DNA of 64,000 nt from Patescibacteria group bacterium (GTDB lineage Bacteria; Patescibacteriota; Microgenomatia; UBA10105; UBA927). The notes under the pieces were generated by a model that saw nothing but the letters and a program-made list of their open reading frames with translations, was not told where the DNA came from and searched no databases. Location: positions 27,814-91,813 of the forward strand of contig DATKGN010000010.1 of assembly GCA_035510735.1 (NCBI GenBank), given 5' to 3'. Position 1 is the first letter of the stretch, and each line of letters starts with the position of its first letter. Shown piece by piece: positions 17,303 through 62,037 of the stretch. A program made the position numbers and the translations under genes.

Positions 17303-17310
17303 TATTTTAT

Positions 17311-17520: not shown

Positions 17521-17521
17521 T

Positions 17522-32244: not shown

Positions 32245-32264
32245 ACTTATCTAGCGAAATCCAG

Positions 32265-34487: not shown

Positions 34488-34560
34488 GAGCTTAGAGCAT
34501 TAGGGCATTAGAGATTAGAAAAACTAAACTCTAAGTTCTAAATACTAAACTCTAATTTAT
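34488..34560. repeat. TAGAG/CTCTA palindromic element (copy 6)
   Basis: 'gagcttagagcattagggcattagagattagaaaaactaaactctaagttctaaatactaaactctaatttatt'. Confidence 0.6.
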
Positions 34561-34561
34561 T

Positions 34562-35419
34562 ATGGGCAAAATCAGAGTCGCCAAATTAGGCGACGAATCA
34601 CAGGAAAAAGAACAAAAACGACGTGCAGACGCACGGCGCCAAACGAAGGATTCCAAAAAATCCAAAGTAGAGGGCGTCCATCTCCATGGCGGTGAACGGG
34701 TCGCAGTCGTTGAGGGAACCGAAATCAGACCGGAGTTTAAAAAGCTTATTGAAGAAGTTGAAGGCACCGATACCGCTAAAGACGGGAAAAAAGCGAAAAA
34801 AGAACATAAAGCGCGGGTTCGCTCAAAGCGGTATGTTGAAAAAGCCTCGCTCATTGAAAAAAATAAATTGTATCCCCTTGGCGACGCCGTATCACTCGTC
34901 AAACAAACAAGCCTTACGAAGTTCGACGGCACGGTAGAGATGCATATCAATTTAAATTCGCAAATGTTAGGAGAAAAGAAAGATTTCCGCGGATCAGTCT
35001 CGCTTCCTCATGGCACGGGCCGCGAGGTCCGGGTCGTCATCGCCGATGATGCAGTAATAGCCGCCGTCACGGATGGAAAAATTGATTTTGATATTCTGGT
35101 TGCCCACCCCAGCATGATGCCAAAGCTCGCTAAAATAGCTAGAGTGTTAGGGCCCAAAGGGCTTATGCCCAATCCCAAAAACGGCACGGTATCTCCTGAT
35201 CCTGAAAAACGCGCAAAAGAGCTCTCTCACGGGCAGGTGAACTTTAAAACTGAACCGGATCAGCCGCTTATTCACTTATCCGTCGGCAAAGTATCGTTTG
35301 ATGACACGAAGCTCGTCGAAAACATTGAAGCGGTTGTCCGCGCCGTCGGCGCCAATAAAATCTCGCGTGCCACCCTCACCGCCACCATGGGCCCGGGTGT
35401 TAAAATCGCACTTTCGTAA
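34562..35419 (+). CDS. rplA: 50S ribosomal protein L1 with ~85-aa Lys/Glu-rich N-terminal extension
   Basis: Core 'LYPLGDAVSLVKQTSLTKFDGTVEMHINLN...GSVSLPHGTG' is L1. It is preceded by 'MGKIRVAKLGDESQEKEQKRRADARRQTKDSKKSK...KKAKKEHKARVRSKR'. Confidence 0.85.
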   Translation: MGKIRVAKLGDESQEKEQKRRADARRQTKDSKKSKVEGVHLHGGERVAVVEGTEIRPEFKKLIEEVEGTDTAKDGKKAKKEHKARVRSKRYVEKASLIEKNKLYPLGDAVSLVKQTSLTKFDGTVEMHINLNSQMLGEKKDFRGSVSLPHGTGREVRVVIADDAVIAAVTDGKIDFDILVAHPSMMPKLAKIARVLGPKGLMPNPKNGTVSPDPEKRAKELSHGQVNFKTEPDQPLIHLSVGKVSFDDTKLVENIEAVVRAVGANKISRATLTATMGPGVKIALS

Positions 35420-38380: not shown

Positions 38381-38448
38381 AGAACTTAGGGCGTAGAGCA
38401 TTAGAGCTTAGAAAAACTAAACTCTAAGCACTAAACCCTAAACTCTAA
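38381..38448. repeat. TAGAG/CTCTA palindromic element (copy 7)
   Basis: 'gaacttagggcgtagagcattagagcttagaaaaactaaactctaagcactaaaccctaaactctaaca'. Confidence 0.6.
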
Positions 38449-39524: not shown

Positions 39525-39925
39525 TAACTGAAGCAAAAGGAAGTCCGTGGTCAGTTTTCGAGTTTTCGAGAAATTACTGCCACGGATCCCGCATGAGCGC
39601 TCTTTCGAGTCGAGGATGTAAACCTCGCGAGAAAGTAAGCTTCGTGCGGGACGAAAAAGAAATTAGAGGCCGCGGGCGCGAAGGTCGAGCTCAAATAAAA
39701 AATACGATAAAACCCAATTCATATTGGGTCGAGATCCCGACGAATAATATGAGTCGGGATAAGAGCTCAAATAAGAATAAAATAGAAATCCGGCGAAGCC
39801 GGATTCGAGATTCTGATGAGATTTACGAATCAGAATGTGAGCTCAAATAATTATAAAATAAAGTCCAGCTTAGCTGGACCGACATCCCGATAAGTTATAC
39901 GAATCGGGATAAGAGCTCAAGTAAT
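39525..39925 (+). repeat. array of hairpins each followed by a re-coded copy of the rplL 3' end plus stop codon
   Basis: 39669-39698 'gccgcgggcgcgaaggtcgagctcaaataa' encodes AAGAKVELK-stop, the same as the rplL C-terminus, with different codons. Then 'gagctcaaataa' at 39763 and 39839 and 'gagctcaagtaa' at 39913 (ELK-stop). Each is preceded by a hairpin such as 'atcccgac..gtcgggat', 'attctgat..atcagaat' or 'atcccgat..atcgggat'. Confidence 0.75.
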
Positions 39926-39933
39926 GACTTTCT

Positions 39934-40013
39934 TGTCATCGTGAGTCGAGTCTTCGAGACGTGGCGATCTCAAACAAGATTGCTTCGCCGTCCGAACGGT
40001 CTCGCAATGACAT
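39934..40013. repeat. TGTCAT-element (complete; TIR 'tgtcatcgtgag...ctcgcaatgaca')
   Basis: Internal 'tcgagtcttcgagacgtggcgatc...gattgcttcg' is nearly identical to the copy at 61945-62037. Confidence 0.7.
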
Positions 40014-41094: not shown

Positions 41095-41182
41095 TGTCAT
41101 TGCGAGTCCGTTCGGACGGCGAAGCAATCTCGTTCACCAAGAAAGAGATCGCCACTCCGCCAGTCGGCGGATCGCGATGACA
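41095..41182. repeat. TGTCAT-element (TIR 'gtgtcattgcgag...atcgcgatgaca')
   Basis: Contains 'ggcgaagcaatctcg'. Confidence 0.65.
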
Positions 41183-41262
41183 AAAAATGTCAATACAGTG
41201 ACGTCGCAAAATACATTATTATTACCACAAGTTATCAACAAACGTCTTATTATCCCAGACTT

Positions 41263-41339
41263 TTGTCATCCTCGGGTCAAGCCCGAGGATCTGCTTTAAA
41301 TTGAAGCCAAACCGATTCCCGCCTTCGCGGGAATGACAT
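41263..41339. repeat. TGTCAT-element variant ('ttgtcatcctcgggtcaagcccgaggat...ttcccgccttcgcgggaatgacat')
   Basis: Shares the 'cctcgggtcaagcccgaggat' arm with the in-gene copy at 50152-50179. Confidence 0.6.
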
Positions 41340-41390
41340 AAGGATATAATCAATAACAATCTATATCGTACTATCTGCATTCATTTGATA

Positions 41391-41419: not shown

Positions 41420-41561
41420 TTGTTGTGAATGATTAACAATCATTTATAGTTTCTCCCCTCCTTCTCCGTCAGTTGACGGATTCGGAGGGCAGGCTGCTCA
41501 AAATATAAATATACGTCTTCTTGCCCTGAGGTTTGTTATTTAACCTTAGCATTCGGTCTTC

Positions 41562-41598
41562 ACGAATTAACTAAGTAACTAAGTAACAAAGTAACTAT
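41562..41598. repeat. tandem 8-nt 'taactaag/taacaaag' repeats
   Basis: 'taactaagtaactaagtaacaaagtaac'. Confidence 0.6.
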
Positions 41599-41599
41599 T

Positions 41600-41800
41600 A
41601 TGTCATTAGGAGATGAATGGCCGGACCTGTTAACAGTCCGCGAGGTCGCAAAAATATTACGCGTCTCGCCGCTCACGATCAAACGCTGGGGCAAGCGCGG
41701 TAAGCTTCCTGCTATCCGCATCAACTCACGGGGCGACCGCAGATATAAGAAAGAGGCCGTCATGTGGCTCCTGGGACTACAGCAAAAAGGGGCTGTGTAA
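41600..41800 (+). CDS. excisionase/AlpA-family helix-turn-helix DNA-binding protein
   Basis: 'LLTVREVAKILRVSPLTIKRWGKRGKLPAIRINSRGDRRYKKE' is the Xis/MerR-type HTH of excisionase-family proteins. Confidence 0.6.
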   Translation: MSLGDEWPDLLTVREVAKILRVSPLTIKRWGKRGKLPAIRINSRGDRRYKKEAVMWLLGLQQKGAV

Positions 41801-48972: not shown

Positions 48973-50463
48973 TTATTTATTGATTCTATACACCCCGACG
49001 AACTCATCATCCAGCGGTTTTTTATATTTTGCCACTAGCGTCATGTACTTTTCCAAACCCCCGTATTGATTTCCCCGTGACACAAAATACCACGGACGAT
49101 TGTTAAATACTCCAAAGCCTGCGACTTCTTTCATTTGTTCAAGGTAAAAGACCGGAATATGTTCGCGCGTCATATAGCTTAGGACCGCATCCTCAGGATT
49201 GCCGCTGTCAAGGCGCACAAAGACCACAATCGGCTGTTTTGCCGATTGGCGAGTCAGATACCCGACAGCCTCACTGACCCCCCAGCCTGACGTCCAGCCG
49301 GTCACATATTGGCTGAAATCCAACCGCGCCGCGGGAAGCGGTTTCAGAATAGAATAGAACTGTAACGGGAAAAAACTCAAAAGAACGCCCTCAAATGCAA
49401 CGGAAACGATAACAGCATACACAATAACACGCTTCTTACAATACGATAACCATAAAGCCGCCAATAATAATAAAGGAACCGAGCTCACGGCGAGATAACG
49501 GGCGGTTAAACTCGTTAACAGCATATATTCGATGAATATCGGGCCGAAAATCCACAGAGCCAATACCTGTACTTCCCGTTTTTTCCAGAATTGCCAGAGT
49601 GCGATACAAAAGACAATAACGGCAACGGGCCCTACAAATGCAAGAAGCCAACTCACAATCGCCTGTGCATTATTGAACCATTGATCGGGTGGCGTTGCTA
49701 AAATTTGCATGAGTGTTCTTGTTCGCACAATAGCCGTCATAGTTTTTGAATAATCGATATTCGGATTAAAGAGCACCGGCACCATGAGGGCAAATGCCGT
49801 CAATACTCCGCAAATAACCCAACTGACTACCACCTGCCACGTGGCGGCCCACTGTTTCCAGTTGATAAGCAGGGTGAAAAATACCAAAGGAACCGCAAGG
49901 AGCATGGTCGATTTATACCACCAGCCTGTGGCAACAACCGCGCCAAGGAGTATTCCTTTTGCGAGGGTAGGCTTCTGGGAAAACAGCAAGGAAAGATACA
50001 GAGCAAGCGTGAAGCACGCGGTAACCGGGCTTTCGGCAAGAGCCAACGTGTCAAAAAGGATGAGAAATGGACAGAGTGCGATGAGGAGTAATGTATAGTT
50101 TATGTCATTCTCGCGCAGGCGAGAATCGGTATTCATTTTCAAAGAATATATGGATCCTCGGGTCAAGCCCGAGGATGACAATATGGAAAAAACGCCCCAG
50201 AAGGTTACACAGGACCAGAGGATGCTGACAAGCCGCATGGAAATCAAGGGATCGAAGGGCAAACGTTGTATTATACCAAATGAAATGGCGACGAGCGGCT
50301 GTTTGCCGTCAAGGGTCCACGCCCACCAACGGCTGGGATCCTGTAAAAACCCAAGTCCCCAGTGCATATAAATGGCTTCATCATTAAAAATCGGTAAGCG
50401 GAAAGCCAATAGGAGCCGGAGGGTCAGGAATAATCCAAATATCACCCAAATACGACGGTTCAT
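48973..50463 (-). CDS. GT39/ArnT-like (PMT_2 family) membrane glycosyltransferase carrying an in-frame palindromic-element insertion
   Basis: Polytopic membrane protein. Nt 50100-50180 is a TGTCAT-element read in frame as 'GLTRGSIYSLKMNTDSRLRENDINY'. Confidence 0.6.
   Translation of the reverse strand: MNRRIWVIFGLFLTLRLLLAFRLPIFNDEAIYMHWGLGFLQDPSRWWAWTLDGKQPLVAISFGIIQRLPFDPLISMRLVSILWSCVTFWGVFSILSSSGLTRGSIYSLKMNTDSRLRENDINYTLLLIALCPFLILFDTLALAESPVTACFTLALYLSLLFSQKPTLAKGILLGAVVATGWWYKSTMLLAVPLVFFTLLINWKQWAATWQVVVSWVICGVLTAFALMVPVLFNPNIDYSKTMTAIVRTRTLMQILATPPDQWFNNAQAIVSWLLAFVGPVAVIVFCIALWQFWKKREVQVLALWIFGPIFIEYMLLTSLTARYLAVSSVPLLLLAALWLSYCKKRVIVYAVIVSVAFEGVLLSFFPLQFYSILKPLPAARLDFSQYVTGWTSGWGVSEAVGYLTRQSAKQPIVVFVRLDSGNPEDAVLSYMTREHIPVFYLEQMKEVAGFGVFNNRPWYFVSRGNQYGGLEKYMTLVAKYKKPLDDEFVGVYRINK
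50100..50180. repeat. TGTCAT-element inserted in frame within a coding sequence
   Basis: 'tgtcattctcgcgcaggcgagaat...atcctcgggtcaagcccgaggatgacaa'. Confidence 0.65.
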
Positions 50464-50577
50464 GAGTAAATAGTATCACGAAATTGATATATACGAGGTC
50501 AAATCGAACGTGATAGTAAGAAAATTTGCATTAATGCGATATATCAATTATAATTATAGGACATTCAGAACTCTCAT

Positions 50578-51051
50578 ATGACGGAAAAGCTCCAGCAAAT
50601 TTCAGTGAAAGATATTGACTTCGCAAGGCGTAGATTGGACCCCTTTTTAAATTACGAACTGCAGCAAAAGGATCCTGAGAGGCAAATTACTGAAACGTTA
50701 GGGTATCACTTTGAGTCGTTAGGACACAAACTAACACATGAAGGCTATCCATGTGAACTTTCAGAATACAGGGAAGGTTTTATACATGCGATTAGAAATG
50801 TATCTCAGGCAATTGAAACAGATGAAACTCAAATTCAATTTGACAGCCTCATTGCGATAAATATAGTTCAGTTTGTAAATTACAATGATAAAGCGGAGAT
50901 CGGAATAATGCACACGACAGGATATATAGATGCGTTGGCATTTCTTAAAAAGTATTATGATATATCGAAGAGAAAAGATCTAACATTTACTGAAATGACC
51001 CACGTGCTCGTACAATTTCATAATGCCGCAATGGGTTATCAATTTAGTTAA
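50578..51051 (+). CDS. hypothetical protein
   Basis: 157 aa, no motif. Confidence 0.4.
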   Translation: MTEKLQQISVKDIDFARRRLDPFLNYELQQKDPERQITETLGYHFESLGHKLTHEGYPCELSEYREGFIHAIRNVSQAIETDETQIQFDSLIAINIVQFVNYNDKAEIGIMHTTGYIDALAFLKKYYDISKRKDLTFTEMTHVLVQFHNAAMGYQFS

Positions 51052-51901
51052 CTATCCCCTTCCAATCCTCCCAAAACCGGGCAACGCCGGAATCAGTAAG
51101 ATCATGGTGAAGATCAAATACTTTCCAATCCTGATCAAGAGAAAGTTCTTTATACGGAATCGGGATTAACCCCGGCACGTCATACACAAAATCATCGGAC
51201 GGTAAAGTAAATCCCCCATCACTCCACTCTTTAAATACTTTGAAAGGGATTGTTATGACGTGACTTTTTAGCCATAATGCATACAGTAAGTGTTTGATCG
51301 TCCGAACACTTGCCGTAAGGACATTGACATGTCCGTCACCCATCTTAAGCATGGCAAGTTCGTTGACGACTACGTCCATCCCGTTTTCCCCTTTATCATC
51401 AAGCCTGCCTACAAACGGCGAGAGAAATACGTCATAATTGTGTGTTTTGGTCACCGCGTAAACCGCAGCCGCCTGTTCCTGGGAAAAGTTTAACGTGATG
51501 TTAACCGGCCCCTCTTCACAAAATTCCTCGACAGCGGAGAGTCCCGCCGTCGTACACGGAAATTTAATAACGCCGTTCTTAATCCACGTAATGCGGTCGC
51601 GGGCTTGGGAAAGCATTTCTTCACTCGTCAATATCGCAGGGTCGCCGATCACCTGGATGGAAATTTTGCCATCGGGGATGATCTTACTCATTTGTGTAAC
51701 AACCCGGCGGTACTCGCTAAATGCTTCACCCATCGAAACCTTTTTCCCGCCGTTTTTGGCGGCAAAATTCTTGGCAATGAGGGTCGGGTTTGTCGTCTGC
51801 CCATCCAGTCCGTGATGACCTGCTTTTTTAAGCAGGTCATCCGCCTGTCTGGTCTCTTCCGGATCCCCGCCGTCTATATAAATATGTGATGGTAAATTCA
51901 T
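51044..51901 (-). CDS. tal: transaldolase (short/FSA-type)
   Basis: 'DGQTTNPTLI' and 'IKFPCTTAGL...SPFVGRLDD'. Confidence 0.8.
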   Translation of the reverse strand: MNLPSHIYIDGGDPEETRQADDLLKKAGHHGLDGQTTNPTLIAKNFAAKNGGKKVSMGEAFSEYRRVVTQMSKIIPDGKISIQVIGDPAILTSEEMLSQARDRITWIKNGVIKFPCTTAGLSAVEEFCEEGPVNITLNFSQEQAAAVYAVTKTHNYDVFLSPFVGRLDDKGENGMDVVVNELAMLKMGDGHVNVLTASVRTIKHLLYALWLKSHVITIPFKVFKEWSDGGFTLPSDDFVYDVPGLIPIPYKELSLDQDWKVFDLHHDLTDSGVARFWEDWKGIVN

Positions 51902-52032
51902 AGTTCCTTTCTTTGCTTAAGGTCGGTGTGCAATTTGTGCGCAACTCTCAGGTAACATAAATTATCACCTTTCGGTATCCATAAGCTACGTGAGAGTGCT
52001 GAGCAAATTGTACACCTCCCCGCGCAGTATTA

Positions 52033-53946
52033 TTATTTACTCACTTTCACGAATGCATTAACCGATTCAATTATATCTGGCGCCGCAATCCCCTCATAGT
52101 CAAGAAGCTCTTTCGCTTTTCCCGACCTTGGCGTTTTGTTAACGGCAAGATGGATAAACGGAATCTTCGATCTTCCGACAATGGCTGATGCCACCGCTTC
52201 TCCCAATCCCCCTTCAGGATAATGGTCTTCAACAACAATGATTGCCTTCGTCTCCTTTGCAGCAGTGAGTAACGTCTTTTTGTCTATCGGTTTAACGGAA
52301 TACGCATCAATTACCCGGATGCCCACGCCGTCATTCTCTAGTTGTTCCTGCGCTTTGAGCGCTTCAAAAAGCGTGATGCCTGCGGCAACAACCGTAACAA
52401 TCTCTTTGGTATTTGCGTGATGGGTTTTACTGCCGCCAACAGGAAATTCATCGCTCTGGGTGTAGAGAATCGACGTCTCGGGACGGGTTGTTCGGATATA
52501 ACAAATGCCCTTTGTATTTAATGCATCTTCGGTAAGCCGCTCCGTGGCGTACGCATCAGCCGGGTAAAGAACGGTCGATCCGTGCACAGTGCGGAATAAG
52601 GCAAGATCTTCAAGCCCCATCTGCGATGGACCATCCTCACCAATTGAGACGCCTGCGTGCGAGCCGTTGAATATAATTGATGAACCGGAAAATGCCGCCA
52701 TCCGGATCTGATCGGCAGCACGGGTTAAAAAGCATGCAAATGATGAGACGACCGGATGAAAGCCGCGCGCGGAAAGACCGACAGCAACGCCGGTCATATT
52801 CTGTTCGGCGATAAAAAGCTCAAAAAACCGCTTCGGATACGCCACTCCGAAAAACTCGGTATAGGTTGAATTTTTCACATCCCCGTCAACAACGACAATA
52901 TGGGGGTCCGTCGCTCCGACCCGTTTCAAAGCGTTACCGAATGCTTTACGCGTTGCAACAGGTTTTGTGGGATCATAAAAAGGTGATGTCGGCTTGGTTT
53001 TATCGAGCGTGAGAGACACAGTAACGCTTGGCGCCTTATTGATGATGCCTCTCACTTTCTTATCAACAGGTGCAATTTCAGCGATCGCCTTTTCAAGCTC
53101 CTCTTTGGATAGCGGTTTCCCGTGCCACCCCGGCATATTTTCTATGAACGAGACGCCTTTGCCCTTCGTGGTTTTAGCAAGAATTACTGTTGGCCCCTTG
53201 CCGCCCAGCGCTTCCATCCACGCCGAATCAACGGATGCGACATCATTCCCGTCACTAACCGTAATGACGCGCCAACCGAATGCTTCAAAGCGCCGCTGAT
53301 ATATTTCAAGTTCATATTCGTACATCGTCGGGTCCGACTGTCCTAAACGGTTGACATCGACAACAAGGTAAAGATTGTTTATCTTTTTAAAGCTCGCGGC
53401 TGCTGCTGCCTCCCACACGGACCCTTCGGCAATTTCTCCGTCACCGGCGAGAATAAAGACACGAGGTAACGTATTAGGGGTTTCGTATTTTGTATTAGGG
53501 TTAATATTATTGTTTTCTCCGTACCCCCTAATTCCAATTCCCTGATACGACAAGCTCATCGCCAATGCTTCACCCAAACCGATGGACAATCCCTGTCCTA
53601 AGCTACCGGTTGCCGCCTCTGTATAGCGGAAACGCTCCGTCGGATGGCCCTCAAGATTGCTGTCAAACGTCCGGTACTTCATGAGCTCTTCTTCGGTAAT
53701 GGCACCCGCTGCTGCATACAAAGAATAATAAAGAGGCGATGCATGACCTTTGCTGAAAATCACGCGGTCGTTGCCTGGGTCTTTGGGATCAGCGAGGTTG
53801 TACCGCAAGTACTTAAAAAATAATACGGTCATAAGTTCCACAGCGGAAAGCGATGATGACGGGTGTCCGCTTCCGGCCTGGGTCGTTATTGTGAGGATGT
53901 AGTAGCGGATAAGATGCGTCAGTTTATCAAGTGATGTCTTATTCAT
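52033..53946 (-). CDS. tkt: transketolase
   Basis: 'GSGHPSSSLSAVELMTVLF', 'ILAGDGEIAEG', full length 637 aa. Confidence 0.9.
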   Translation of the reverse strand: MNKTSLDKLTHLIRYYILTITTQAGSGHPSSSLSAVELMTVLFFKYLRYNLADPKDPGNDRVIFSKGHASPLYYSLYAAAGAITEEELMKYRTFDSNLEGHPTERFRYTEAATGSLGQGLSIGLGEALAMSLSYQGIGIRGYGENNNINPNTKYETPNTLPRVFILAGDGEIAEGSVWEAAAAASFKKINNLYLVVDVNRLGQSDPTMYEYELEIYQRRFEAFGWRVITVSDGNDVASVDSAWMEALGGKGPTVILAKTTKGKGVSFIENMPGWHGKPLSKEELEKAIAEIAPVDKKVRGIINKAPSVTVSLTLDKTKPTSPFYDPTKPVATRKAFGNALKRVGATDPHIVVVDGDVKNSTYTEFFGVAYPKRFFELFIAEQNMTGVAVGLSARGFHPVVSSFACFLTRAADQIRMAAFSGSSIIFNGSHAGVSIGEDGPSQMGLEDLALFRTVHGSTVLYPADAYATERLTEDALNTKGICYIRTTRPETSILYTQSDEFPVGGSKTHHANTKEIVTVVAAGITLFEALKAQEQLENDGVGIRVIDAYSVKPIDKKTLLTAAKETKAIIVVEDHYPEGGLGEAVASAIVGRSKIPFIHLAVNKTPRSGKAKELLDYEGIAAPDIIESVNAFVKVSK

Positions 53947-53985
53947 GAAGCTATCATACTCTAGGGATTATTATCCGTCCAGAGA

Positions 53986-54831
53986 TTAAAATAGGATCCA
54001 GAGTACGAAGAGGTATATCGCACCCATTTGGGTTAAAAACTTAACGACCTTGACTCCCCGCTGAAGCGAGACTATCTGTTGAGCTCCGCGTCCGGAGAGT
54101 GAAATCCAAATACCGTAAAATACCAATAATATAGGAAGCTGAATGATAATCGGGATGGTAAAAGTTGCCCAGGAGTACATATTGAAAACCAGGTAAAGAA
54201 TACCTGCCGCTGCTGCCAAAACCAAACCTGAAACGAGACTCCGGTCAATTCCTAATACGACATGGGTGTTGGCCAATCCCGCCTTTTCATCAGCCTGAGT
54301 GTCCGCAATTTGATACGGGAACATACCTGCAAGAATCGCAAGACTAGATATGATGCTAAATGCGGCAATAAAATTGACATTTGCTTTTCCCCATAAAGGA
54401 GCAAAAAACGGCAGCATCCAGGTAGCCACTATCTGTGAAATCAAATCCAGACCAAATCTGCGTTTGAGACGAATAGGCTCAAGGGAGTACGAAAGAGCGA
54501 TAGCGTAAATAACTACTGCCCACCAAATAAACCCGACATACCAACTCAATGCTAATCCAACGAGGGAACAAGTAATAAACATCAAAAGTACGACACGCTT
54601 ATCCAGGATGTCATTCTTTCTTATATGAATATTATTCCAACTGAGCCTGTCCGTATCGTTCCGGTCGGTGATCTCATTCACGATAAATGCAGAGATGGAG
54701 AGGAGTACTACCCCTATCGCCCACCAAAAGATGGACCAGTTACGGATTCCGGCGAATAGTCCGGCAGCAATTACTGAACTGAATGCCAGATATTGATCCT
54801 GGAGACGGAAAAGACGGATATATTTCCCCAT
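53986..54831 (-). CDS. UbiA-family prenyltransferase (DPPR-like)
   Basis: Polytopic. 'IVNEITDRNDTDRLS' is an Asp-rich UbiA motif. Confidence 0.55.
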   Translation of the reverse strand: MGKYIRLFRLQDQYLAFSSVIAAGLFAGIRNWSIFWWAIGVVLLSISAFIVNEITDRNDTDRLSWNNIHIRKNDILDKRVVLLMFITCSLVGLALSWYVGFIWWAVVIYAIALSYSLEPIRLKRRFGLDLISQIVATWMLPFFAPLWGKANVNFIAAFSIISSLAILAGMFPYQIADTQADEKAGLANTHVVLGIDRSLVSGLVLAAAAGILYLVFNMYSWATFTIPIIIQLPILLVFYGIWISLSGRGAQQIVSLQRGVKVVKFLTQMGAIYLFVLWILF

Positions 54832-54846
54832 ACGGGAAATATCATA

Positions 54847-55518
54847 TCACGAAGACGAGACGTCCTTGAGTTGTTCGATGGCCGAGGGAATTCCGTCGGG
54901 ATTGTTGTATATAAACGAGGTAGACACCAATCTTGTGGCTCCTGCATCTACTGCAATTCTCGCTGTTTTATCATTAATCCCGCCGTCTACTTCAATAGGC
55001 AAATCCGGATAATGTTCATGGATCCGGCGTATTTTTTCCGTCGTCTCTTCAAGAAACGGCTGACCGCTGAAACCGGCCTCAATCGTCATCACGAGAACCG
55101 TATCAACCTGGTCCAAAAACGGCTCGGCCACCTCAAGCTCGGTTGCCCCGTCAATGGCTATCCCAACCTCGACGTGCTCATACTGAGCCTGGTCAAAGAA
55201 CACACGCGGATCATGTGCCTCAACGTGCGCAATAATCCGTTTGAATCCGTTATCGACAAGGGTTTTGAGATATTTTTCGGGACTGACGACCATGAGATGC
55301 GCTTCAAAAGACAAATGGGAAAGCTCGCGTTTGAGTACTGGCGTCCCAAACTTGGAAAAATCGAGGATGGTCGTATTTTGGACTAGCGTGTTATCGGCAA
55401 TATCAATTTGCACCCACTCCACATGCGGAGCTACAAGTAACAACCGTTCCTCAACGCGCGCCCACTCTTTTTCTAATATTCCCGGGATTACGTCAATCAT
55501 AGATTCGTCATCAGACAC
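54847..55518 (-). CDS. rpe: ribulose-phosphate 3-epimerase
   Basis: 'WVQIDIADNTLVQNTT', 'HLMVVSP', C-terminal 'VDGGIN'. Confidence 0.8.
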   Translation of the reverse strand: MSDDESMIDVIPGILEKEWARVEERLLLVAPHVEWVQIDIADNTLVQNTTILDFSKFGTPVLKRELSHLSFEAHLMVVSPEKYLKTLVDNGFKRIIAHVEAHDPRVFFDQAQYEHVEVGIAIDGATELEVAEPFLDQVDTVLVMTIEAGFSGQPFLEETTEKIRRIHEHYPDLPIEVDGGINDKTARIAVDAGATRLVSTSFIYNNPDGIPSAIEQLKDVSSS

Positions 55519-55519
55519 T

Positions 55520-55605
55520 CGTCATTCGTCATCCGGAGTCCGATATTCGACATTCGGGATTACATATTGCGGATCACGAATTACGGATGTCGGATTACTT
55601 TTGTA
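55520..55605. repeat. degenerate heptanucleotide tandem repeats
   Basis: 'cattcgt catccgg agtccga tattcga cattcgg gattaca tattgcg gatcacg aattacg gatgtcg gattact'. Confidence 0.6.
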
Positions 55606-56049
55606 TTATGTATCTCTTTCACTAATCTTATTTAAGCGCCGGTTATGCCGTTCGCCTGCTTCAAATTCAACAAGCAAAAAAGCCTTCACGAGCTCTTTTG
55701 CCTCGTCAAAATCGGTAAAATCTGCGGATAATGAAAGCACATTGATATCATTACTCTGACGATTGTGTTTTACATCCGCAACATGGACCGCAGTCGTGCT
55801 CCGTATACCATGAACCTTATTTGCCGCTATCGTGACGCCTCCACCTGATCCGCAAATCACAATACCGCGGCTCCCGGGGTCAGCTGCCACCTTATCTGCA
55901 ACGGCAAATGAAAAATCGGGAAAATCATCATCGGGATCATACTGTGTGTTCCCGCAATCCTGTATATCATTTCCCTGTTCACGAAGCCATAAAATCAATT
56001 TCTCCTTGAGGTGAAACCCGCGATGGTCGGCGCCTGTATAGATGGTCAT
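55606..56049 (-). CDS. rpiB: ribose-5-phosphate isomerase B
   Basis: 'GIVICGSGGGVTIAANK'. Confidence 0.85.
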   Translation of the reverse strand: MTIYTGADHRGFHLKEKLILWLREQGNDIQDCGNTQYDPDDDFPDFSFAVADKVAADPGSRGIVICGSGGGVTIAANKVHGIRSTTAVHVADVKHNRQSNDINVLSLSADFTDFDEAKELVKAFLLVEFEAGERHNRRLNKISERDT

Positions 56050-56069
56050 AAGTTAACAAATCAACAATA

Positions 56070-56112
56070 CAACAAAGTAACAAAGTAACAAAGTAACAAA
56101 GTAACAAAGTAA
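56070..56112. repeat. tandem octamer 'caaagtaa' x5
   Basis: 'caaagtaacaaagtaacaaagtaacaaagtaacaaagtaac'. Confidence 0.75.
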
Positions 56113-56113
56113 C

Positions 56114-56842
56114 TTATTTTAGAGTACCAACTGCCTGATCAGTGTACAAGAGGCAGTGTGGCATTTCATTTATTATCCGGGCCGGAGTTTTATACAGCTC
56201 ACCCGTTGGCGCGAGCGCCGCATCAAGCGCTTTCTTTTTCCCTGATCCAACCGCATACACAATAGATGTCGTCACTTTCCGCAAAAACGGCAGGCTGACT
56301 GTAACCCGAAGCGGAAAGGGGTTGCGCCAACTGGCATCGTAGCCCACGACCCAGGTATCGCTATCCTCAAAGTAAAACTCAAATGTCCGCTTATCATCGG
56401 CGTACGGCATGATACCCGCGGTGTGTCCGTCCGGCCCCACTCCCTGAAGAGCGATAATAATGCCATCCGTATGAGCCATACTCCATGCTTTGAGAAAATC
56501 TTCAAACCGTTTAGCTAATTCTCCAATCGCTTCGTTGTCTTTAGGAACGCTTTCAAACGTTGTCACCCCACGCTTCACCGCTTCTTTATAAAAGTCGGTC
56601 TGGGAAAGCCGCAGGAAATTGTTGACGCCGGGATCTTTGGAAAACCGTTCGTCAAGAACCGCAACCGCCACATGCGCATCAAAAAGATCCATGGGAATGG
56701 AATGGAGAAGATTCAGTGATGAACCGCCGGAAACCAACAGAAGAACTGGTGTATTTTTATTCTCCCCAAGAACCTGGGTAAGCGCTTCCGATGCTTCCCG
56801 TGTCACTGTTGCTGTGTCTGAATATGAATGTATGTCGACCAT
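56114..56842 (-). CDS. pgl: 6-phosphogluconolactonase
   Basis: 'VLLLVSGGSSL'. NagB/Pgl fold; located between gnd and rpiB. Confidence 0.7.
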   Translation of the reverse strand: MVDIHSYSDTATVTREASEALTQVLGENKNTPVLLLVSGGSSLNLLHSIPMDLFDAHVAVAVLDERFSKDPGVNNFLRLSQTDFYKEAVKRGVTTFESVPKDNEAIGELAKRFEDFLKAWSMAHTDGIIIALQGVGPDGHTAGIMPYADDKRTFEFYFEDSDTWVVGYDASWRNPFPLRVTVSLPFLRKVTTSIVYAVGSGKKKALDAALAPTGELYKTPARIINEMPHCLLYTDQAVGTLK

Positions 56843-56936
56843 AATTATTTCGTTAACCGTTAACCGAAAATCGTTAAACGCTTTCTATCTATTTTAAGGG
56901 TTGACGGTTCACGATTCACGCTTAACGTTTTTTCGT

Positions 56937-57932
56937 TTACCGCGGCTCCTTATGTCCGCCGTACCCGGCCCGCAGAGCCGAGACTACTTTCCCTGCAAAC
57001 GTCGGATTGGTCACTGATTTTTCCCTGGCCCGTATTGAATCCTCAATAACTTTTGCTTCAACACCAAGTTCATATGCCTCCTCAAGGGTCCATTTACCGG
57101 TCTCTCCTCCGCCGACTTTTCCCGAATACGCTGTAAGTTTCGGATCACTGTCGAAAGCATTCGCCAATAGTTCAACGAGCCAACTCCGGACGACACTTCC
57201 ATGGCTCCACGTATGGGCAACCTTGGCAAAGTCAAGATCGTATGGCCCGTCTGCAAGAATCTCAAATCCTTCGCCGATTGCTTCATTCATCCCGTATTCA
57301 ACTCCGTTGTGAACCATTTTAACGTAATGTCCGGCGCCTGACGGACCGAAGTGCGCCCATCCATCTTTCACCGCAGCTGCATTCCAGAGCCAATCGAGCT
57401 TTTGAACTTCAGAAGTCTCCCCACCGATCATGAGACATGCGCCGTGCCGGGCTCCGGAGAGTCCTCCGCTCGTGCCGCAGTCGATGTAATGAATCCCTTT
57501 CGCCGCAAGCTCCTTACTACGTCGAACCGTATCTTTGTAGTAACAATTGCCTCCATCTATAACAATATCCCCTTTTTGTATACCAGAGGACATCAATTGT
57601 TCCAATACTTCATCGACGGGTTTACCATTAGGAACCATGAGCCAGATAACTCGAGGTGGAATTAATTGTTTTATGAGATCCAGAAGATCATAGGCGGGGT
57701 TGAGAGTACCAAGCTTTATCTTCTCGTGATCCGTGATCCGTGATCCGTGATCCGTATTAGCTTTTCCAATAACCGATGTCGGATTCCGAATGTCGGATAT
57801 CGACTTTGCGAACTCTTCCGTCACTTCACGTGTCCTGTTAAAGGCGACCACGTCAATATCCTGCTCCAACAGATGAAGCACCATATTCTTTCCCATGCGA
57901 CCAAGCCCAATAAAACCGAGTTGATGGCCCAT
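56937..57932 (-). CDS. gnd: 6-phosphogluconate dehydrogenase (decarboxylating, short Gnd-like form) with in-frame repeat insertion
   Basis: 'LGFIGLGRMGKNMVLHL'. Residues ~50-73 ('SISDIRNPTSVIGKANTDHGSRITDHEKIK') are encoded by the 'gtgatcc' x4 and 'gatgtcggat' repeats. Confidence 0.8.
   Translation of the reverse strand: MGHQLGFIGLGRMGKNMVLHLLEQDIDVVAFNRTREVTEEFAKSISDIRNPTSVIGKANTDHGSRITDHEKIKLGTLNPAYDLLDLIKQLIPPRVIWLMVPNGKPVDEVLEQLMSSGIQKGDIVIDGGNCYYKDTVRRSKELAAKGIHYIDCGTSGGLSGARHGACLMIGGETSEVQKLDWLWNAAAVKDGWAHFGPSGAGHYVKMVHNGVEYGMNEAIGEGFEILADGPYDLDFAKVAHTWSHGSVVRSWLVELLANAFDSDPKLTAYSGKVGGGETGKWTLEEAYELGVEAKVIEDSIRAREKSVTNPTFAGKVVSALRAGYGGHKEPR
57713..57810. repeat. heptanucleotide tandem repeats located inside the gnd coding sequence
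   Basis: 'cgtgatccgtgatccgtgatccgtgatccgt' and 'gatgtcggattccgaatgtcggatatcgac'. Confidence 0.7.
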
Positions 57933-58496
57933 ATACCCATGGTAAATATAATTGATAAAACAATCAATAGAGAGGAATATCCCCGATCCCCACCCGCTCT
58001 ATGCCTCTCTGGCGGGCCCGCTTTCGTGCAAATCATAGCGGGTCCTGCTGGCTTCACTACTAATCGCTCGGGAACGGATTTTTAAAGACACGTTCGGTAG
58101 AGTCTTTGCGTATGAGTAATAGGTTGTTCCCACCTCACTAAGTGCGCGTTTGCACCATAGTAAGACACCTTTATTCCTGTGCAAACGCGCGAGTTGTCTT
58201 TAGAAAATCGTTCCCTTCGCGCTTTCTCTCGTTTACGGGTGGCGTGGGATAAGGGACCCCGGCAGCACGGAGCGCGACCACGAATACCACAAGAAATAAG
58301 AAAGAATACGTCCGTGGTATGAATGTGGGCAGAAGACGTGATATATCAATACCACGGTTGGTGGTGCCGGGAGTACTGACGGGAATATATCCCACGACAG
58401 GACCCGTAAGTTACGGGAGATTCTCCGCTATAGCCACAAAAAAGCCCCGCATCGCTGCAGAGCTTTTTTGTTTTTTTTGTACTTTTTTTACCGAGT

Positions 58497-58883
58497 TTAA
58501 TACCGGTTTCCGCCACCACGTCGATCGTGTCCGCCGCCGTGACCGCCACCGAATCCGCCGCCACCGCGTCGATCTCCACCACCACCGCCGCCGCGATATC
58601 CGCCGCCGCCACCACCGAACGAGTTATCTCGCGGTGCCTGGGGTTTGGCCTCATTGACGACGATTGCACGTCCGTCAAGCGTCTGGCCGTTTAATGTTTC
58701 GATTGCCTTTTTCGCTTCCTCTTCAGAGGACATTTCGACAAATCCGAATCCTCTGGATTTTCCAGAGTATTTGTCCATGATGACGGTTGCACTGACAACC
58801 GTACCTGCCTGACCAAAAAAATCATGGAGCGACGCATCGGTCGTGTCCCATGAAAGACTTCCTACAAACAATTTCGCTGCCAT
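58497..58883 (-). CDS. RRM-type glycine-rich RNA-binding protein
   Basis: RNP1/RNP2 'KLFVGSLSW' and 'RGFGFVEM', plus an RGG/Gly-rich tail. Confidence 0.8.
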   Translation of the reverse strand: MAAKLFVGSLSWDTTDASLHDFFGQAGTVVSATVIMDKYSGKSRGFGFVEMSSEEEAKKAIETLNGQTLDGRAIVVNEAKPQAPRDNSFGGGGGGYRGGGGGGDRRGGGGFGGGHGGGHDRRGGGNRY

Positions 58884-59065
58884 ACTGGCCCTCCTAATAA
58901 ACCTTCCTTCGCGTCAATAGACGTGAGAAAAACTAATACGGCCCTAATAATACCGTATTGGTGAAATAATAGCTAGTACGAAAATGAGGTTGTGGTTGAC
59001 ATGAGGGCGTGATTGCGCTATAACGCTCGTACTGTCCGCTAGTGACAGTATTTTTTTAAAAAACT

Positions 59066-59572
59066 ATGAAAGAAGATATTAAAAGCGCAATCGTCACATT
59101 AACTCAACACACAAATAATTCTGGAGTTTCCGAGGAGCAATGGAAAGAAAACAAAGAAATGGAACATGCGATCGAACAGGCCTGGATGCACGCAGATGAC
59201 ATTACGGTAAAGTACGGTCTTCCAAAAACTAACTCGCTGAAAGAAAAATCACATGCTGATACGAAACAAATACCATTATTTTCAACTGAAGATGAACAAA
59301 TTCCTCAAGAACTTTGGTTCAATTTAACCGGAATCAATCCTCCTGAATCGGGAAAATCCAATTCATTTTCACAGATAACGTGCTGGGTTCGGAACGAAAA
59401 TAACGCAGTAGATCCTTTATTTGTACTATCCCATGACTCTGCGACTTTGATGCATAACCAGAAACTAGTCAAATTAGAATTATCGCATATAGAAGCTATA
59501 GAAACGATCCTTTCATTTATAGAACAGGGTTGTGCAGAAATGGCAAACGCACCGGCTCCTACCGAAGCCTGA
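59066..59572 (+). CDS. hypothetical protein
   Basis: 168 aa, no motif. Confidence 0.4.
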   Translation: MKEDIKSAIVTLTQHTNNSGVSEEQWKENKEMEHAIEQAWMHADDITVKYGLPKTNSLKEKSHADTKQIPLFSTEDEQIPQELWFNLTGINPPESGKSNSFSQITCWVRNENNAVDPLFVLSHDSATLMHNQKLVKLELSHIEAIETILSFIEQGCAEMANAPAPTEA

Positions 59573-59608
59573 ATATCGGGCTCGCCTTCATAAACTGCAG
59601 AATTTCTT

Positions 59609-59923
59609 TTACCGGGGTAATTTATTCGACAAGGCTTCATAGGCCCCGTCGAGCTTGGCAAAAACGTCATCGGGAAGCGCATCCTGCGCCCAGGCCACGG
59701 AGAGCATGCTTCTGACGCCTGCAACAAGCCCCATGGCATCGCGGAGGATGTCATCGTGTAATCGTCGGTCGCGCCTCGAAACGCCGTCTGCGATCGTTGT
59801 AAGGGTTTTGAGACCTAATCGTTGGGCACGTTTGACTACCATATTACTGTCATCAAGCTCCAAGAGATCAAGAACCGCCGTGTAGGCTTCCTGCCAAAGT
59901 TTATCGTCGTGGAATGTAGACAT
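59609..59923 (-). CDS. hypothetical protein, possibly a divergent four-helix-bundle paralog
   Basis: 'KLWQEAY...RLGLKTLTTIADGVSRRDRRL' weakly follows the family pattern. Confidence 0.3.
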   Translation of the reverse strand: MSTFHDDKLWQEAYTAVLDLLELDDSNMVVKRAQRLGLKTLTTIADGVSRRDRRLHDDILRDAMGLVAGVRSMLSVAWAQDALPDDVFAKLDGAYEALSNKLPR

Positions 59924-59924
59924 A

Positions 59925-59962
59925 TGTTTCGTAATCCGTCATCCGTAATCCGTCATCCGAGT
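59925..59962. repeat. tandem 'cgtaatccgtcatc' repeats
   Basis: 'cgtaatccgtcatccgtaatccgtcatccgagtac'. Confidence 0.6.
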
Positions 59963-59964
59963 AC

Positions 59965-60330
59965 TTATCCGGTCGCGTGCACTCGAATCAGACCATTGAT
60001 GACTTGACCTCCTCGAATTATCAATGAATATAATGCATCAAACTCTTTTTCCTTTATCAAGCCCAGATCTTTTGCGAGTATGAGAAAATTTGCCACCTCA
60101 CTGTTCGACCCGCGTGCTTGATAGTAAAAGCGTAGCTTATCTGGATAATGGTATCGACCAAATCCTTCGGCAATATTCGCAGTTACAGAACTTGCTGCTC
60201 GCCTTAACTGATCAATGATACCAAACTTTTCCTCTTTCGGAAAGCCAACCGTCAATTTATAGATAGCGAGTACAATTTGATGGTTAATTTTCCACGCTTC
60301 CAAATCAGTAAATGAAGCAATTTTGCTCAT
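59965..60330 (-). CDS. four-helix-bundle protein (23S rRNA IVS protein family)
   Basis: 'IDQLRRAASSVTANIAEGFGRYHYPDKLRFYYQARGSNSEVANFL'. Start likely 'MSKIASFTDLEAWK' at 60330. Confidence 0.75.
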   Translation of the reverse strand: MSKIASFTDLEAWKINHQIVLAIYKLTVGFPKEEKFGIIDQLRRAASSVTANIAEGFGRYHYPDKLRFYYQARGSNSEVANFLILAKDLGLIKEKEFDALYSLIIRGGQVINGLIRVHATG

Positions 60331-60351
60331 ATTTATACTCGTCACTCGGAA

Positions 60352-60432
60352 CTCGTCATCCATCATCCGTATTGCGCTTCCCAGCTGTCAAATGTTGGAT
60401 GTCGGATGTCGAGTGTCGAATGTCGCCGCTAC
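60352..60432. repeat. degenerate heptanucleotide tandem repeats
   Basis: 'ttggatgtc ggatgtc gagtgtc gaatgtc gcc'. Confidence 0.6.
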
Positions 60433-61919
60433 GCGTCGTCCTCCAAATACCAATGCCTGCCGTCTTTTTTCATAAGTTCGTTCGATTCAGACGGGCCCCA
60501 TGTCCCCTTGGTATAGGTGATGAGCGGCGCTTTCTTGGCGTGCGTTTTCCAGCCCTCAAGAATTTTTGTTGCAAACGACCACGACGCATCAATCTCGTCG
60601 GTTCGGGAGAATAGCGTCTGATCACCGCCAATGGCATCAAGAAGAAGCCGCTCATACGCCATCGGCTGTGGTTCTTTTGTAAATGAATCTTTGTAGGCGA
60701 AGTTCATCTGAACGGGCGTTAATTTCATGCCAAATCCCGGTTTTTTGGCCATAAGCCGGAGGATAATCCCCTCTTTCGGATCAATCCGGATAGCAAGGAC
60801 GTTCCGCATCACATCGGGTTCAGGAAATAGGCACACGTCGCCAATGCACACTGCCGGTTTTTTGTAATGGATGGAAATCTCCGTCGTTTTTTTAGATAAG
60901 TGTTTGCCGGCACGAAGGTAAAATGGCACGTCGCGCCACCTCGGGGTATCAAGTGTGAGACGAAGTGCGACGAATGTTTCGGTCGTCGAGTGGGAGTCTA
61001 CATTTTTTTCCTTCGTATAGCCCTCATATTGTCCGCGGACAACATAGCGGCCGACATCTTTTGGCTCAATACAGTTAATCGCCCGCGTCACTTTCACGCG
61101 CTGGTCCCTAATGGACTCGGCATCAAACGCGCGCGGCTGGTCCATGGCGGTCGTCGCAAGCATCTCGAGCATATGGTTCTGTACAACATCCCGTAGGGTG
61201 CCGACGCCATCATAGAACTCACCACGGGTGCCGACGCCGATATCTTCAGCGAGCGTTATCTGCACGTGGTCGATAAACTTGCGGTTCCATGTCGGCTCAA
61301 AAATACCGTTGGCGAACCGGAAACTAAGCAAATTCTGCACGGTTTCTTTCCCCAGATAATGGTCAATCCGGTAAATTTGCCGCTCTTCAAAAATAGTCCC
61401 CAGCAACTGGTCGAGGTGCTGTGCTGTTGTAAGATCTTTCCCGAACGGCTTTTCAATAAGCACGCGGGTATACAAACTAGTTCCCTGTCCGCAGCCCTCT
61501 GAGAGTTTGCTTTTGTGGAGATGGTTTAATATGGTTTCATAATGCTGCGGCGGTGTGGCTAAGTAAAAAAACCGGGGAACACAAGCTTGTATCTCTGTAT
61601 CAAACCCTTCAAGAAGCTTTGTAAGATCACTGTAAAGTGCTGCGTCTTCAAATTTCCCCTTACTGTAGTGCATGTGCTCGATAATATGGCTCCAGAGAGT
61701 GAGGTCAAACTCGCTCCCAAGTGATTCACGGACGGCGGCCGCCATCATCTCGCGGAATTGATCGGTCGTGATCTCCCGCCGGCCAACGCCCACAATATAA
61801 ATATCCCGCGAAACTGCGCCGTCCCTTATAAGATGGTAGAGCGCCGGCATAAGTTTCCGGTGCATGAGATCGCCGGTCGCACCGAAGATAACCATAACAA
61901 GGAGGGATGAGGAAGTCAT
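60429..61919 (-). CDS. zwf: glucose-6-phosphate 1-dehydrogenase
   Basis: 'IFGATGDLMHRKLMPALYHL', 'RIDHYLGKE', 496 aa. Confidence 0.9.
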   Translation of the reverse strand: MTSSSLLVMVIFGATGDLMHRKLMPALYHLIRDGAVSRDIYIVGVGRREITTDQFREMMAAAVRESLGSEFDLTLWSHIIEHMHYSKGKFEDAALYSDLTKLLEGFDTEIQACVPRFFYLATPPQHYETILNHLHKSKLSEGCGQGTSLYTRVLIEKPFGKDLTTAQHLDQLLGTIFEERQIYRIDHYLGKETVQNLLSFRFANGIFEPTWNRKFIDHVQITLAEDIGVGTRGEFYDGVGTLRDVVQNHMLEMLATTAMDQPRAFDAESIRDQRVKVTRAINCIEPKDVGRYVVRGQYEGYTKEKNVDSHSTTETFVALRLTLDTPRWRDVPFYLRAGKHLSKKTTEISIHYKKPAVCIGDVCLFPEPDVMRNVLAIRIDPKEGIILRLMAKKPGFGMKLTPVQMNFAYKDSFTKEPQPMAYERLLLDAIGGDQTLFSRTDEIDASWSFATKILEGWKTHAKKAPLITYTKGTWGPSESNELMKKDGRHWYLEDDA

Positions 61920-61944: not shown

Positions 61945-62037
61945 TGTCATTGCGAGTCGAGTCCGCGAGACGTGGCAATCTTATTATTGGGATTGCTTCG
62001 TATTCGCAACGTCGCTCGGGATCCTCGCAATGACAAT
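61945..62037. repeat. TGTCAT-element (complete; 'ctgtcattgcgagtcgagtccgcgagacgtggcaatc...gattgcttcg...ctcgcaatgacaa')
   Basis: Near-identical arms to the copy at 39934-40013. Confidence 0.7.

Follow-up and report, generated by a model that had tools for sequence, protein, structure and literature searches.

How does a palindromic repeat of a kind found mostly between genes come to be translated, in frame, within the gene of a membrane enzyme, and to which family does it belong? The question is raised by a 64-kb window (the whole stretch of DNA analysed here) from Patescibacteria group bacterium (UBA927; assembly GCA_035510735.1, contig DATKGN010000010.1, 27,814-91,813), in which an open reading frame (ORF) for a membrane glycosyltransferase carries a palindromic element that opens with TGTCAT. 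A sequence-only reading of the window had placed this element at 50100-50180, likened its behaviour to that of Rickettsia palindromic elements (RPEs) and supposed that its family was undescribed. The in-frame element is confirmed by the sequence and its peptide is the one quoted in that reading; the extent was right within three bases, the true bounds being 50103-50180. The account favoured here, with a probability of about 0.8, is that the element is a head-to-head heterodimer of stem-loops from the CGTC-tagged superfamily of repetitive extragenic palindromic (REP) sequences, carried as a tolerated in-frame passenger in a loop of an enzyme with the glycosyltransferase C (GT-C) fold. All unit counts for the source organism cover the 64-kb window alone.

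Three orthologous proteins recur below: the window protein, P0002 (encoded on L001) and P0003 (encoded on L003). The gene and the parts of its element are listed with the evidence used for each.

48973-50463, minus strand: gene for a 496-aa GT-C-fold membrane glycosyltransferase, PMT_2/GT39-like (Pfam, homologs, AlphaFold2, Foldseek, dN/dS)
50103-50180, unstranded: head-to-head heterodimer, tags outside, of two CGTC/TGTC-tagged REP units (sequence, strict scan, covariance model R1, RNA fold)
50103-50129, plus strand: unit A, with tag TGTC, 8-bp stem ATTCTCGC/GCGAGAAT, 4-nt loop GCAG and tail CGG (strict scan, R1)
50130-50150, unstranded: variable spacer between units A and B (comparison with L003 and L001)
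50151-50180, minus strand: unit B, with tag TGTC, 9-bp stem ATCCTCGGG/CCCGAGGAT, 5-nt loop CTTGA and tail CCA (strict scan, R1)

The intragenic dimer is 78 nt long, equivalent to 26 codons. On the plus strand its first half runs from 50103 as TGTC, ATTCTCGC-GCAG-GCGAGAAT and CGG, followed by a 21-nt spacer, and its second half runs to 50180 as TGG, ATCCTCGGG-TCAAG-CCCGAGGAT and GACA. These are two perfect, mutually inverted stem-loops, each beginning with AT and each preceded on its outer side by TGTC, and their stems lie about 27 nt apart (the 21-nt spacer plus two 3-nt tails). The sequence of the spacer differs among the orthologous copies of the window, L003 and L001. The sense strand of the gene reads the dimer in the phase xTG TCA TCC at one end and AAT GAC Axx at the other, so that unit A yields the peptide DSRLREND and unit B yields (L)SSSGLTRGS; the antisense strand encodes MSFSRRRES...DPRVKPEDD. 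The in-frame translation is L95-SSSGLTRGSIYSLKMNTDSRLREND-I121, in which the element codes for residues 96-120, and in the protein the dimer occupies codons 95-121, within the loop that joins helices 72-96 and 114-130. In folding, a check proposed by the sequence-only reading, the sense-strand RNA of the intragenic dimer reaches -30.2 kcal/mol (z -4.8), and the six dimers of the window have z-scores of -3.2 to -6.4.

This architecture has a published counterpart in the CGTC-tagged REP superfamily (Di Nocera, De Gregorio and Rocco, 2013, BMC Genomics 14:522; PMC3733652). Its members have stems of 8 or 9 bp that open with an A-T and a T-A pair, loops of 4 or 5 nt, the tag CGTC with TGTC variants, and a 3-nt tail that is mostly CCA. 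Head-to-head dimers predominate, with spacers of 20-100 bp and frequent heterodimers, and the copies sit near 3' ends, in the gaps that separate unidirectional and convergent genes; intragenic copies occur now and then, in frame and encoding 20-30 aa, and no transposase is associated with these REPs (PMC3733652). CGTC-1 elements in Neisseria are known as dRS3, and those of CGTC-1 and of CGTC-4 in R. conorii as RPE-6 and RPE-4 (PMC3733652). Since this superfamily, including its TGTC variants, dimers and in-frame copies, was published in 2013, the supposition of an undescribed family fails. Judged by its 8-bp stem and 4-nt loop, unit A is of CGTC-1 type, like Neisseria dRS3 and Rickettsia RPE-6, and by the same measure unit B, with a 9-bp stem and 5-nt loop, is of CGTC-3/4 type.

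The resemblance to RPEs is therefore more than an analogy: unit A has the features of the class that holds RPE-6, and the translated peptides match published ones. The in-frame peptides in Additional file 3 of the 2013 paper (PMC3733652) include SFLRKQES...DSRFRGND, DSRLRGND, VIPAKAGI and WIPAFTGMT; DSRLREND in the window protein and DSRLRGND, which P0003 derives from its unit, correspond to the published DSRFRGND/DSRLRGND, and MSFPRRRES in P0002 corresponds to SFLRKQES. A main-text literature search for the translated motifs (PAFAGMT, SRFRGND, IPAKAGI) returned none, the motifs occurring only in the supplement of PMC3733652, and a search limited to one full-text library returned no paper that deals with such repeats in members of the candidate phyla radiation (CPR).

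Membership in the superfamily was also assessed by scans of the window and of other genomes. A strict scan for a tag plus a perfect hairpin, scored against shuffles, found 4 units in the window versus 0.26 in shuffled sequence, namely (stem/loop) at 50103 (8/4), 50180 (9/5), 41264 (9/5) and 41338 (8/4). The covariance model R1 was built from 42 units, all from genomes other than that of the window; its training units were picked for perfect stems, and pair counts on the alignment A2 are therefore descriptive only. R1 scored unit B at 52.3 bits (50151-50180, minus strand; E 4.3e-12), unit A at 22.0 bits (50103-50129; E 9e-4), and the two units of a second dimer at 31.9 bits (41264-41293) and 21.5 bits (41312-41338). 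A cross-genome scan with the pattern TGTCATCCTCGGG-N(3-7)-CCCGAGGAT, using one genome per species, returned at least 120 loci. Unit B is identical to the cross-phylum consensus, and its 27-mer is found in more than 120 loci in many phyla. Among the matches listed, the hosts of the exact unit TGTCATCCTCGGG-N-CCCGAGGAT are Alphaproteobacteria (including Inquilinus, Hyphomicrobium, Agrobacterium, Shinella, Brucella and Roseobacter), Gammaproteobacteria, 11 Patescibacteria metagenome-assembled genomes (MAGs), Treponema, a Campylobacter MAG, Myxococcota, Bacteroidota and others. In these same listed matches ATCCA typically follows the unit, about half have an inverted partner within 130 nt (13-86 nt away and ending in ATGAC(A/G)), and about 90% have the loop CTTGA or CTTGT when it is read inward. 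A second in-frame A+B dimer was found in a P-type ATPase gene (L006 3-1991, minus strand, Patescibacteria MAG FK_Sedi_B_Bin.260; CHSRAGGNLSKIDPRVKPEDD), the product of which has the motifs DKTGTLT and GDGVNDAPAL. The same ATPase possibly holds a second, degenerate unit, ATLGRQARMTG.

These scans bear on the suggestion that the segment is simply a native, lineage-specific loop that is palindromic by chance and lies outside the repeat family. Three related orthologs do have a similar segment at this loop, but units of the A and B kinds are also intergenic in the window and present in many phyla, R1, trained elsewhere, scores this very copy at E 4e-12, and the sense strand of L001 reads as the antisense of the window. 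A native loop is accordingly almost inconceivable, and was rejected on the cross-phylum occurrence and the R1 score.

The host protein scores 23.7 bits against Pfam PMT_2, under the 26.1 cut-off. Among the 43 homologs found, PF13231 is recorded for many, and some are named GT39 in Candidatus Shapirobacteria or Gottesmanbacteria. An AlphaFold2 (AF2) model of the 496 residues, made from a 22-sequence alignment, has a mean predicted local distance difference test (pLDDT) of 89.1 and a predicted template modelling score (pTM) of 0.89, and in it the whole protein folds as one GT-C domain. The sole stretch with a pLDDT below 50 is residues 101-111, inside the segment coded by the element. Foldseek matched the model to ArnT (5f15; TMq 0.60), ALG12, STT3, PglB and AftB, with E values of 3e-6 to 7e-4, and further to AftD and Pmt4; these matches identify the protein as a GT-C enzyme. 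The loop that bears the element is probably cytoplasmic, as suggested by its positive charge in insert-free orthologs and by the usual GT-C topology.

The sequence-only reading had raised the possibility that the ORF is a pseudogene and that the real gene starts downstream of the element; a related possibility is a wrongly extended ORF, with the real start at an ATG inside the element. The 387-aa homolog P0001, which is 100% identical, does begin with MNTDSRL at that ATG. However, the two Logan contigs that carry it, L125 and L126 from the same organism, have GTCATCCTCGGG, the left end of the dimer, at position 1; since these contigs start exactly at the repeat, the downstream start of P0001 is an assembly artefact, a call cut short where the assembly broke. 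The 94 codons upstream of the element hold a PIFNDE motif that is near-invariant in the orthologs (P24, F26, N27, D28, E29), and D28 and E29 represent the acidic motif expected in the first extracytoplasmic loop of GT-C enzymes. Compared with the closest ortholog, on L001, these codons have non-synonymous and synonymous divergences (dN and dS) of 0.10 and 1.52, a ratio of about 0.07, whereas the rest of the gene has a dN of 0.20 and a dS of 1.50 and is thus under weaker constraint. Such strong purifying selection upstream of the element argues that the gene is intact. Given also the complete GT-C model over 496 aa and a frame that stays open across the element in three orthologs, the pseudogene reading was rejected and a downstream start is highly improbable.

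Only three of the inspected orthologs carry the segment: the window protein, P0002 (70% identity) and P0003 (52%). At least 25 orthologs are without it, and the length of the loop varies among orthologs, so the segment is far from a universal feature of the enzyme. On L003 the dimer matches that of the window in orientation and codon phase, while the spacer has diverged. Two stem changes between the window and L003 are double-sided: CCTCGGG/CCCGAGG became CCTCGGA/TCCGAGG, and TCTCGC/GCGAGA corresponds to TCCCGC/GCGGGA. On L001 the dimer is flipped, and its sense strand reads MSFPRRRES...DPRVLRPEDD, resembling the antisense translation of the window. Directly after this flipped dimer, L001 has a run of in-frame 7-nt repeats (CGATTAC/GGATTAC; 5370-5415) that adds some 14 residues to the loop, and the same 7-mer family is also intergenic in the window, at 4811-4839, 55557-55599 and 57767-57809. 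The 1.22-Mb contig L124, syntenic with window 48973-61919, has an orthologous glycosyltransferase without a REP in the loop (9477-10936). That gene is split into ORFs of 161 and 311 aa by a frameshift near codon 160 beside a T-run, which is either a sequencing error or a mark of a pseudogene; the same locus on L124 has a REP dimer of the type I described below between rplJ and rplL.

Three aspects of this comparison weigh against a simple passenger insertion. First, only about three loop residues remain outside the element in the window protein versus 10-18 loop residues in insert-free orthologs, which indicates that the native loop was replaced, not merely extended. The event therefore appears not to be a clean addition, the native loop having apparently been lost, and the clean insertion of about 27 residues foreseen by the sequence-only reading stands only in part: the segment is absent from most orthologs, but it took the place of native sequence. 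Second, close relatives offered no example of an empty site; the flipped dimer is present in the nearest ortholog (70%), so that the insertion is deduced from more distant orthologs. Third, the units of the window and L003 differ at just 5 of 51 positions, and 4 of those 5 make up two compensatory pairs, at a distance where synonymous sites are saturated (proportion of synonymous differences 0.79-0.81). Such low divergence together with compensatory pairs would not be expected of a purely neutral old passenger.

That the nearest relative has a flipped copy shows that the loop was remodelled at least twice. A single old insertion with a later inversion is possible, as are two or three independent hits on a permissive loop. 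The latter, in which the loop is a hot spot and the dimers of the window, L001 and L003 arose by two or three separate insertions, is a serious contender that falls somewhat short of an even chance. Apart from the flipped dimer in the closest relative, the junctions vary by 1-3 codons, the three copies have unlike spacers and loop details, and in a neighbour-joining (NJ) tree of 21 orthologs the insert-free group P0004-6 falls between the window/P0002 pair and P0003. There is also a precedent in Xanthomonas recB genes, in which different REPs lie at about the same site (Di Nocera et al., PMC3733652). The relevant nodes of the tree, however, have only 42-53% support, and the copies of the window and of L003 agree in orientation, phase, loop types (CTTGN, GCAG) and the loss of the native loop, which suggests common descent.

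The compensatory changes also invite an explanation in which the hairpins themselves are kept by selection at the RNA or DNA level, as mRNA structure for translation or decay, or as a site for binding or recombination. The window and L003 copies keep one orientation and one codon phase, two stem positions changed on both sides while the spacer diverged and synonymous sites became saturated, the fold z-scores are -4.8 and -5.6, and dimers of such build are annotated in Rfam as small RNAs (sRNAs) in Francisella (FtrB) and Wolbachia (WsnRNA46). Yet independent insertions of family variants, or gene conversion by other copies, would give the same pattern; a sample of two compensatory pairs from two sequences is small; most orthologs manage well in the absence of the segment; and in the nearest relative the dimer points the other way, which speaks against an RNA role tied to one strand. 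Selection on the hairpins is thus unlikely. Equally doubtful is the fuller version, in which the dimer predates the split of the window and L003 lineages and its selected hairpins act as a functional nucleic-acid element within coding sequence or as a site for a conserved host factor. If true, such a host factor could explain near-identical units in Patescibacteria, Proteobacteria and Spirochaetes without a dedicated transposase.

Under the preferred reading of a tolerated passenger, a copy of a multi-copy, non-coding repeat would have come to lie in the DNA for a short loop between two transmembrane helices. The frame stays open because the length of the dimer is a multiple of three, because its phase avoids the TGA in ATGACA (as two of the three phases do) and because it has no internal stop codon. 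The dimer would then be translated as about 26 extra residues, probably disordered, and the enzyme would stay intact; we infer that the insertion is such a passenger and not a functional module. By analogy with the precedents of GTAG REPs and their REP-associated tyrosine transposases (RAYTs) and of dRS3 and Nf phages, the units may have spread as single-stranded hairpin DNA with the help of a trans-acting transposase or recombinase of the HUH or IS110 type. A Pfam scan of about 50 ORFs of the window, a 64-kb sample, found no transposase, integrase or recombinase domain, in keeping with the published lack of a dedicated transposase for CGTC REPs (PMC3733652). Viral vectors gave no clear signal, as only 8 loci among 2.9 million viral contigs carry the unit.

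The intragenic dimer has relatives elsewhere in the window, which holds 13 units at seven sites: six tags-outside dimers with unlike arms and one single arm. All 13 arms start with TGTC. Five of the six dimers and the single arm are intergenic, in settings that comprise the def-fmt spacer, the region downstream of rplL, convergent gene pairs and the gap between the LytR_C gene and zwf. The other copies are as follows.

41264-41338, unstranded: intergenic head-to-head dimer of units B + A (repeat search, strict scan, R1, sub-threshold Rfam FtrB)
41095-41182, unstranded: intergenic type-I head-to-head dimer (motif, folding; R1 12.7 and 13.9 bits only)
39934-40012, unstranded: intergenic type-I head-to-head dimer downstream of rplL (motif, folding, Pfam neighbours)
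61945-62035, unstranded: intergenic type-I head-to-head dimer, 10 nt past the LytR_C stop and 26 nt before the start of zwf (glucose-6-phosphate dehydrogenase, G6PD)
4641-4744, unstranded: type-I head-to-head dimer filling the def-fmt spacer, its terminal ATGACA providing the fmt start codon (4739-4741)
14591-14645, plus strand: single type-I arm with convergent genes on either side and no partner arm (fold z -1.35 over 14591-14650, no better than shuffles)

The five intergenic dimers named in the sequence-only reading are thus real at slightly shifted coordinates, and the remaining copy in its list is the single arm. The nearest pair of dimers, 41095-41182 and 41264-41338, lie 81 nt apart. 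In the two canonical dimers (50103-50180 and 41264-41338) the stem-to-stem distance is about 24-27 nt. Unit B of 41264-41338 has the loop TCAAG and the tail CTG, and its unit A, ATTCCCGC-GAAG-GCGGGAAT, fits the dRS3 form ATTCCC-N8-GGGAAT. The loop TCAAG, read inward from the tag of unit B (41264-41290), is rare, with one case among about 130 other-genome matches listed. Tails of the other window units are CGG, CTG, CTC and CTT, with CCA in the intragenic unit B, and elsewhere CCA, CTC and CTA are common.

Each of the nine type-I arms of the window is built of TGTC-ATYGCGAG, an inner hairpin that varies, and (C/T)G(A/T/C)(A/G)GCRAT-CTC. The 12-mer motif TGTCATYGCGAG, with at most one mismatch, occurs 9 times in the window versus 0.67 expected from shuffles. 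These arms retain the tag, the AT start, the ATC end and tags-outside pairing, and their third stem position covaries in 9/9 arms, as a T-A or a C-G pair; the outer stem (ATYGC/GCRAT) extends for just 5 bp, followed by the inner hairpin, and R1 scores are 11-14 bits. Similar arms were found in Inquilinus, a Campylobacter MAG, Treponema, Parcubacteria, Kuenenbacteria, L001 and L124. At 32520-32563 (minus strand), TGTCATCGCGTCCGCCAAAGGCGGCTTCGGAT resembles a degenerate type-I arm that R1 missed; it lies near the 3' end of ORF 32458-33759 (433 aa, no Pfam match).

The sequence-only reading had also proposed that an element supplies the ATG of fmt, and the protein alignment bears this out. The def stop is at 4632, and position 2 of the Formyl_trans_N profile falls on residue 39 of the ORF opening at 4640; hence the ATG at 4739 gives MTQIIKILFFGS, a normal Fmt N-terminus. 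A published parallel is that REP termini can supply stop codons (PMC3733652). The fmt ORF (4739-5893) encodes about 384 aa versus the usual 310 or so. At 5359-5740 the frame continues across three 8-nt tandem-repeat blocks (AACAATAA-like), and these place low-complexity sequences, such as QQYNNKTIKQ and QREQQINKLTTQQSDNTTKQRNN, in the stretch that separates the N-terminal from the C-terminal formyltransferase domain.

Tandem-repeat tracts of 7-8 nt (TTTGTTAA / AACAAAGT, CTAAACTCTAA-like) occur at several loci on both strands, mostly intergenic beside gene ends (8736-8829, 41554-41604, 56047-56122, 5359-5740, 9129, 17273-17932, 34501-34567 and 38394-38448). Three tandem units of about 75 nt, each with a hairpin (ATCCCGAC...GTCGGGAT), lie at 39729-39934 between rplL and the REP dimer at 39934, and a second three-copy set, spaced at about 70-78 nt, lies downstream of nusG at 32210-32390. 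At 59965-60366 (minus strand), beside zwf and outside an rRNA gene, lies a free-standing gene whose product is a 23S rRNA intervening-sequence protein (PF05635, 116 bits). ORF 23262-26282 (1006 aa, no Pfam match) has a 171-nt tandem duplication of 86% identity at 24723-25064, and also Pro/Thr-rich repeats (CCGACGCCGAC...). A second 496-aa ORF (60429-61919), suspected to be a paralog of the glycosyltransferase, is G6PD and unrelated to it.

What is new here is modest: a Patescibacteria host, a new target gene, a dimer in the same loop of three orthologs (one of them flipped) and two compensatory stem changes. A small, streamlined CPR genome thereby joins the hosts of an old, cross-phylum family of tagged-hairpin repeats. 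For annotation, the lesson is that such repeats can sit in frame within essential-looking membrane enzymes, that they can supply start codons, as for fmt here, and that short-read assemblies break exactly at their ends and leave truncated gene calls. The compensatory orthologous copies and the flipped copy make up a small natural experiment on whether the hairpins are selected or merely tolerated.

Several known systems resemble the window copies to different degrees. The GTAG REPs and REPINs are likewise small tagged hairpins, multi-copy and mostly intergenic, with inverted doublets able to form one long hairpin; however, the window tag is TGTC and not GTAG, and no RAYT/Y1 gene is present among the scanned window ORFs. 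RAYT transposases have not been linked to CGTC REPs in the literature. REPIN/RAYT membership was rejected on the wrong tag and the lack of a Y1_Tnp-like ORF in the window. Miniature inverted-repeat transposable elements (MITEs; Correia/NEMIS, RUP, Nezha) are also short, non-coding and multi-copy with inverted ends, but they have terminal inverted repeats of 15-30 bp, whereas the window termini are common for 6 nt only and conservation lies in a hairpin whose stems covary. None of the six window dimers has a direct repeat at its flanks, and a MITE was rejected for want of such a target-site duplication.

Among annotated RNAs, Rfam RF02748 FtrB (Francisella sRNA B) has the consensus GUCAUUCCCGCGUAGGCGGGAAUC ... 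GAUCCCCGUGUCAAGCACGAGGAU, which is the same A+B head-to-head dimer build. At gathering thresholds Rfam matched four tRNAs alone in the window and no repeat family; below them, FtrB scored 38.6 bits at 41245-41360 (minus strand) and 25.6 bits at 50084-50196 (plus strand) against a gathering threshold of 66, and RF02625 WsnRNA46 (Wolbachia) scored 18.7 bits against 65.3. Because these scores are below gathering, the window copies are not members of either family, and the REP modules alone match.

The Neisseria dRS3 consensus is the 20-bp ATTCCC-N8-GGGAAT, and its dRS3/Nf1 form is ATTCCCgcCTgcgcGGGAAT. Unit A of L003 is identical to this dRS3/Nf1 form, the window unit at 41315-41334 fits the general form, and the intragenic unit A, with stem ends ATTCTC-N8-GAGAAT, is a compensated variant of it. 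In Neisseria intergenic mosaic elements (NIME), dRS3 flank RS elements in long arrays, whereas the window has isolated dimers only, and integration of Nf/MDA phages by an IS110-like enzyme is known for Neisseria only.

The classic long RPE, RPE-1, is a different and longer element. RPE-6 and RPE-4 likewise lie in frame within functional genes, and their translated motifs match when compared as peptides; the host lineage and target gene differ, and here a CGTC-1-type unit is paired with a 9/5-type unit. As for the CGTC-tagged REPs as a whole, a Patescibacteria/CPR host is not among the five phyla listed in 2013 (PMC3733652), and the nine type-I arms of the window fall outside the published definition of 8-9 bp stems and 4-5 nt loops. 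The window copies are nevertheless mostly intergenic in the same way, beside unidirectional or convergent genes and with no transposase in the window, and the intragenic dimer shares with the superfamily the TGTC tag, stems of 8 and 9 bp that start with AT, loops of 4 and 5 nt, a 3-nt tail (CCA in unit B, CGG in unit A) and the tags-outside heterodimer arrangement.

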